Assembly (NCBI RefSeq): GCF_033153115.1
Contig: NW_026889759.1
Span: 4,340,001 to 4,404,000, forward strand
Direction: 5' to 3'
Length of the DNA: 64,000 nucleotides
Origin: Saccostrea echinata
Taxonomy: Eukaryota
Shown here: in pieces, positions 1 through 10,001 of the stretch
Layout: each line of letters opens with the position of its first letter
Position numbering within the stretch: the stretch's first letter is position 1
The notes under the pieces: model-generated
Seen by the model: the letters and a program-made list of their open reading frames with translations, nothing else
Told to the model about the DNA's origin: nothing
The model's database searches: none
Program-made: the position numbers and the translations under genes

Positions 1-10001
<10,001 letters not shown>

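Follow-up and report, generated by a model that had tools for sequence, protein, structure and literature searches.

Does an oyster FAK (PTK2) gene contain, in the intron between the exon encoding its Y397-equivalent tyrosine and its first kinase exon, a genuine optional exon at the position of vertebrate box 7, and was such an exon inherited together with box 7 or acquired independently of it? The question is raised by a 30-nt segment in the FAK gene of Saccostrea echinata, to which an initial sequence-only reading had ascribed good splice sites, a basic peptide and a role in the control of FAK autoinhibition. The FAK regulatory linker exons have been reported as vertebrate innovations, and according to Corsi et al. 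none of exons 13, 14, 16 and 31 is identifiable in non-vertebrates (PMC1570463). No mollusc or invertebrate FAK linker exon was found in the literature searched, the scope of which excluded most subscription journals. The identical exon is encoded in the RefSeq-predicted mollusc FAK isoforms, but as annotation only, its conservation, its correspondence to box 7 and its function being undescribed there. Its presence in automated gene models, such as XP_061175118.1 (S. echinata isoform X1), limits the surprise of its discovery.

The FAK locus of Saccostrea echinata

The window analysed is a 64,000-nt stretch of the S. echinata contig NW_026889759.1, and all coordinates given here refer to it (Table 1). 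Assignment of the gene at its start to FAK/PTK2 is based on the FERM domain, the Y397-type linker motif, the tyrosine kinase domain and the FAT domain of its product (Pfam; alignment to 2J0J), while the best full-length matches obtained with a kinase exon of the window as query were oyster FAK proteins. Exact mapping of XP_061175118.1 reproduced 863 of the 867 residues that fall within the window, in 19 exact runs, one of which is the microexon.

Table 1. Features of the FAK gene and its linker region in the S. echinata window.
Feature	Position	Strand	Basis or remark
FAK (PTK2) gene, 3' two-thirds: end of FERM, linker, kinase, FAT	1..10001	+	Pfam, exact mapping; 5' part precedes the window
54-nt optional exon, FERM end of linker	1429..1482	+	Exact mapping, isoform comparison
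TGCATG pair immediately 3' of the 54-nt exon	1491..1507	+	
72-nt linker exon with PxxP (PR1-like) stretch	2033..2104	+	In 37/37 oyster isoforms compared
TGCATG 96 nt upstream of the Y397 exon	2329..2334	+	RBFOX usually represses from this side
57-nt phase 1-1 exon with Y397- and Y407-equivalent tyrosines (Y397 exon)	2425..2481	+	Some annotated mollusc isoforms lack it
3' end of the preceding intron, with a CTAAT resembling a branch point near -56, an interrupted pyrimidine tract and a tag acceptor	3310..3365	+	
Cassette microexon of 30 nt (phase 1-1) encoding 10 residues of net charge +5	3366..3395	+	Residues 507-516 of S. echinata isoform X1
5' splice site gtgagt	3396..3401	+	Last exon base A, where G is usual
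TGCATG (RBFOX-type motif), +43 from microexon donor	3438..3443	+	Candidate element
First kinase-domain exon (N-lobe, glycine-rich loop)	4532..4629	+	Exact mapping

Aside from FAK, an RB1CC1/FIP200 gene is located approximately 40 kb downstream on the + strand (~49000-58800), where the region 51527-51796 gave a PDB match (E 1.5e-11) and a weak, ATG17-like Pfam match. FIP200 is described as an inhibitor of FAK (PMC6025627), and the linkage of the two genes may be due to chance. Near-repeated exon-like stretches also occur on the + strand between ~32600 and ~44700 (at 32597, 33572, 42380 and 43263, and at 33859 and 44427), suggesting a gene with internally duplicated exons; two stretches of this region gave no Pfam match.

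Conservation and alternative inclusion of the microexon in molluscs

The description of a 30-nt phase 1-1 segment with splice sites in the sequence-only reading was borne out in full, with a tag acceptor, a gtgagt donor, an open frame and the peptide that had been named. The microexon sits in the intron that separates the Y397 exon from the first kinase exon, all three junctions are in phase 1, and the frame remains open whether or not it is included, with inclusion changing the junction residue from Ala to Thr. As the window matches the RefSeq inclusion isoforms exactly, which is evidence external to the splice pattern, there is very little doubt that the microexon is a real alternative exon of oyster FAK. 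It is included in all four S. echinata isoforms among the matches listed, which comprise 15 of the 22 members of the cluster. RefSeq isoform models are built for the most part on RNA-seq junctions, and isoforms that skip the microexon are annotated in S. cucullata, Ostrea edulis, Crassostrea virginica, Magallana gigas and M. angulata. The conservation in related bivalves to which the sequence-only reading had looked was confirmed in proteins, its ten residues being identical across six oyster species, in contrast to the adjacent linker exon, which varies among oysters.

The comparison was extended to 185 named mollusc proteins, three of which lack the kinase start and 23 the Y397 motif. An insert is present at the microexon junction in 113 of the 159 remaining proteins. 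In a conservation table of 30 rows, in which each species or genus is represented by a single inclusion isoform chosen by hand (16 bivalves, 12 gastropods and two cephalopods), the inserts are 10-14 residues long and carry a net charge of +2 to +8, with 25 of the 30 rows at +4 to +8. Since the insert is found in bivalves, gastropods and cephalopods, the microexon was probably in place before these three classes diverged, as judged from protein sequence. The insert is missing from all 16 unnamed mollusc-like proteins of Logan origin that cover the linker (scored by eye, with the taxon judged by likeness), which suggests that skipping dominates in bulk RNA, with the reservation that rare variants are dropped in assemblies of this kind. 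Among the sequencing runs matched by a run search, none is recorded as RNA, and five that are presumed to be RNA contain 0.24-0.29 of the words. Four Magallana proteins contain a further five-residue piece after the microexon, which is probably encoded by a second microexon of 15 nt. When a counterpart was sought in the S. echinata intron at 3396-4531, six AG-15nt-GT/GC candidates were identified, none of which is similar to the Magallana piece.

The 23 isoforms without the Y397 motif are derived from 13 bivalve and gastropod species and are predicted to represent FAK that is unable to recruit Src via pY397. The microexon is also missing in 22 of them, the exception being Haliotis cracherodii X5; this joint loss is as expected if the microexon serves Y397, while the coupling seen in the RefSeq models may also be an effect of model building. 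Three spider FAK-like proteins lack a Y397 motif and retain a Y407-like segment, and apparently represent a paralogue that lost the Y397 site.

Relationship to vertebrate box 7

When aligned against chicken FAK (2J0J), the ten microexon residues appear as a clean gap immediately following the Y407 segment. This is the alignment column occupied by box 7, and the positional correspondence put forward in the sequence-only reading thus holds. Among the jawed-vertebrate proteins with a Y397 motif, 73 of 117 contain an insert at this junction, mostly of seven residues (KSYGIDE in mammals), as does one of eight hagfish proteins. Inclusion of box 7 is enriched in brain, neuroendocrine tissue and testis. 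Box 7 is reported to comprise 21 nt and seven residues, and the position of Y414 in FAK7 agrees with its placement at this junction (PMC12420805); further vertebrate context is provided in PMC12868881 and bioRxiv 10.1101/2024.06.13.598849.

Both box 7 (exon 16; FAK7 and FAK6,7) and the mollusc exon are flanked by the Y397/Y407 exon on one side and the first kinase exon on the other, both are optional and frame-preserving, and inclusion alters the junction residue in both, phase 1 of the vertebrate exon being deduced from the Thr/Ala junction change in proteins. The peptides that they encode differ, however, with the longer, positively charged mollusc inserts lacking Tyr in most cases, whereas box 7 has a net charge of -1 to 0 and contributes an extra Tyr (Y414). 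Inclusion yields a junction Ser or Thr in most molluscs, while Thr is replaced by Ala in vertebrates. Furthermore, skipping of the Y397 exon is annotated in molluscs as well as skipping of the insert, unlike in the vertebrate box 7 system. As the oyster exon (30 nt, +5, no Tyr) departs from the 21-nt length, neutral to acidic character and added Tyr by which box 7 is recognised, its classification as box 7 itself was rejected.

Inserts at the same junction have a patchy distribution outside molluscs and vertebrates. None were found in 103 arthropod and 21 echinoderm proteins, nor in three annelid and two brachiopod proteins, where few gene models make for weak evidence, nor in single proteins of amphioxus, Ciona, Tubulanus and a sea anemone, which are equally weak evidence at one protein each. 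The non-mollusc FAK-like matches among the 50%-cluster representatives include no comparable basic insert, although longer linkers occur in a few unnamed, divergent proteins. In the nemertean (ribbon worm) Lineus longissimus, five of seven isoforms contain an amphipathic-looking insert of 21 residues at the junction, while nine of 19 named stony-coral proteins (Porites, Acropora, Montipora and Desmophyllum) contain one of 23-25 residues, with the junction uncertain by one residue. The coral insert is hydrophobic with a basic tail, and one further copy is derived from a Logan assembly. Both the Lineus and the coral inserts are known from proteins, with which a cassette exon and an alternative splice site are compatible alike. 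The Lineus, coral, mollusc and box 7 inserts are mutually unrelated in sequence.

The occurrence of four unlike peptides with gaps between the lineages favours repeated invention, and the sequence comparisons indicate that the mollusc exon probably arose independently of vertebrate box 7. An origin either ancient or convergent had been proposed in the sequence-only reading, and the evidence leans towards the convergent option, in view of the opposite charge, the single shared Gly, the absence from arthropods and echinoderms and the unrelated coral and nemertean inserts. Descent of the mollusc exon and box 7 from one ancestral microexon, of bilaterian age or, should the coral and nemertean inserts be part of it, older, which subsequently diverged and was lost in arthropods and echinoderms, is considered unlikely, although the shared junction, the compatible phase and the optional inserts at this junction in four lineages would fit such a history. 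The sole likeness in sequence, a Gly at insert position 4, is common to box 7 and the inserts of oysters, pearl oyster, scallops and mussels, with the scallops also sharing Tyr-Gly at positions 3-4 with box 7. This Gly is, however, absent in the other bivalves, the gastropods and the cephalopods, the inserts range in length from 7 through 10-14 and 21 to 23-25 residues and are discordant in charge, several losses would be required, and convergence of microexons at the same position is on record (PMC8797185; bioRxiv 10.64898/2026.09.05.749416). In such type I convergence, exemplified by fly sponge and vertebrate DOCK3/4 (bioRxiv 10.64898/2026.09.05.749416, PMC8797185), small exons of differing sequence occupy the same position of orthologues in distant lineages, as do the FAK inserts; unlike in the type I examples, four lineages, including cnidarians, have inserts at the one FAK junction. 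Neither source mentions FAK/PTK2 in its main text.

Predicted effects on Y397 accessibility

In FAK with the mollusc microexon, a short basic stretch is added between the Y397 segment and the kinase N-lobe. The primary paper on cis autophosphorylation of the box 7 forms is said to be Toutant 2002. Autophosphorylation of FAK normally occurs in trans, with the box 7 forms being capable of cis autophosphorylation (PMC1570463, PMC6025627), an ability which modelling ascribes to the lengthened loop that follows Y397 (PMC12420805). Linker residues 394-401 of the autoinhibited protein contribute a strand to the FERM F1 lobe and are sandwiched against the kinase N-lobe, with Y397 becoming exposed upon binding of membrane PIP2 via basic patches (PMC7072507). 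The 10-14 extra flexible residues of the mollusc forms would provide slack in the linker and make autophosphorylation of Y397 easier, as proposed for box 7. Since the mollusc insert lengthens the same loop, and by more, it should act like box 7, and by this analogy it appears fairly likely that the insert raises the accessibility of Y397. AlphaFold modelling on a 24-row alignment was uninformative (mean pLDDT 58, pTM 0.34), residues 326-397, which comprise the whole linker with Y397, scoring below 50. On balance, and with some reserve, the microexon is thus best read as a mollusc-wide optional basic exon, independent of box 7, which likely acts through the same linker slack.

The basic patch and the junction Ser/Thr

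A basic RRRKK patch had been highlighted in the sequence-only reading, and for the oyster insert this stands, at a net charge of +5; strong basicity is not universal, however, with four caenogastropods and Octopus at only +2 to +3. The insert could instead function mainly as a targeting signal, either a classical NLS or a polybasic PI(4,5)P2 anchor, that is tolerated as a surface loop and has little effect on autoinhibition. The high charge of most mollusc inserts would suit such a role, as would the activation of FAK on PIP2 membranes via basic patches and its nuclear roles (PMC7072507, PMC6025627), and the basic ends of the coral inserts and the amphipathic appearance of the nemertean insert fit with membrane contact. 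The low charge in the caenogastropods and Octopus argues against it, and a stand-alone signal would have no need of the near-obligate coupling to the Y397 exon, so that a role restricted to targeting has a low probability.

Rather than targeting alone, the reading preferred here, that of linker slack, may be extended by a second, mollusc-specific layer. A Ser or Thr residue with Arg or Lys at position -3 constitutes the consensus of basophilic kinases. Upon inclusion of the microexon, a junction Ser/Thr with Arg/Lys at -3 is created in all 28 non-cephalopod species of the conservation table, which are related and not independent, and both the junction Ser/Thr and the -3 Arg are kept in the caenogastropods, whose basic run has otherwise decayed; this pairing had not been noted in the sequence-only reading. 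The skipping partners have Ala or Gly at the junction in 14 of 15 cases, with one pair compared across Haliotis species and one across Bradybaena paralogues. The junction residue is therefore a candidate site for kinases of the PKA/PKC/Akt type on sequence grounds, and its actual use is proposed only tentatively. Both cephalopod rows have Pro at the junction, which counts against a phosphosite, and in the longer Magallana isoforms, in place of which the shorter ones were used in the conservation table, the five-residue piece moves the junction Ser off the basic run. The junction Ser/Thr is also partly a consequence of the two invariant bases with which the next exon begins, in combination with a last microexon base other than G, and the latter could have been selected because it weakens the donor and not because it creates a phosphosite. 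As suggested by the conservation of both elements, the basic run would favour acidic membranes and phosphorylation of the junction Ser/Thr would dampen its charge.

Splicing signals and possible regulation of the linker cassettes

Among the 37 oyster isoforms compared, the only internal cassettes are the 54-nt exon, the Y397 exon and the microexon, together with the five-residue Magallana piece. Optional segments of unrelated sequence are also found at the FERM-end junction in other molluscs, arthropods, starfish, Lingula and Lineus. In the S. echinata gene, TGCATG occurs within ~150 nt of all three cassettes and of none of the 16 remaining exon runs, including one truncated at the start of the window (Fisher p 0.001, post hoc), and the chance of a single TGCATG in 100 nt of this window is approximately 5%. 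RBFOX proteins usually activate exons from downstream and repress them from upstream (PMC11874969). The proximal downstream (U)GCAUG that typifies RBFOX-activated cassettes is present at the microexon, where the sequence-only reading had correctly noted it about 40 nt beyond the donor. By this positional rule, the microexon would be included and the Y397 exon skipped in the same cells. The isoform models rarely pair microexon inclusion with Y397-exon skipping, which renders the RBFOX reading incomplete, and dependence of microexon inclusion on RBFOX is plausible but falls somewhat short of even likelihood. RBFOX-type control of the three linker cassettes would give rise to three states of FAK, namely Y397-less, standard and insert-primed forms.

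The microexon may alternatively belong to a neural eMIC programme of the SRRM3/4 type, in direct parallel to the vertebrate neuronal FAK6,7 form. A UGC near the 3' splice site, a long AG-exclusion zone and a CUAAY branch point are among the features listed for eMIC exons (PMC8797185). The 30-nt length of the microexon, its CTAAT branch-like motif, the AG-free stretch of ~45 nt before its acceptor (determined by eye, with no background scoring) and its non-consensus last base are all in agreement with this, and the absence of the insert from the Logan-derived proteins fits with restricted inclusion. The UGC hallmark is missing, however, with no TGC in the 40 nt upstream of the acceptor, and RBFOX-type motifs are found instead, making membership of a neural eMIC programme unlikely. 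RBFOX is also active in muscle (PMC8742874), so that muscle is as likely a tissue as nerve.

The splice signals alone prove little, since 27 of 100 shuffled introns also contained at least one in-frame, stop-free YAG..GTRAG candidate of 9-60 nt, a pattern for which the microexon is the only candidate in the 2-kb intron. That the microexon is a chance intronic look-alike or tolerated, functionless splicing noise, as this frequency of similar patterns might suggest, was nevertheless rejected as extremely improbable, being contradicted by the exon in the annotated RefSeq isoforms of S. echinata and by the conservation of a basic insert across three mollusc classes (30 species).

Significance for FAK biology

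The Y397-kinase junction may, in the most far-reaching interpretation, be a recurrent splice dial of FAK that was filled independently at least four times, in vertebrates, molluscs, a nemertean and stony corals. In molluscs it would form part of an RBFOX-run three-state switch, with the basophilic site made at the junction of the primed form toggling a polybasic membrane patch. This combined proposal is speculative and, taken as a whole, unlikely to hold in every part. If true, it would mean that cAMP/PKC/Akt signals are wired into FAK autoactivation in a way that vertebrates lack. The most interest lies in the insert hotspot shared by four lineages and in the Y397-less isoform. The unrelated inserts of molluscs, the nemertean and the corals represent natural test peptides for whether box 7 acts via linker length alone or via its sequence, while the conserved mollusc Y397-less isoform provides a natural model for autophosphorylation-independent FAK.
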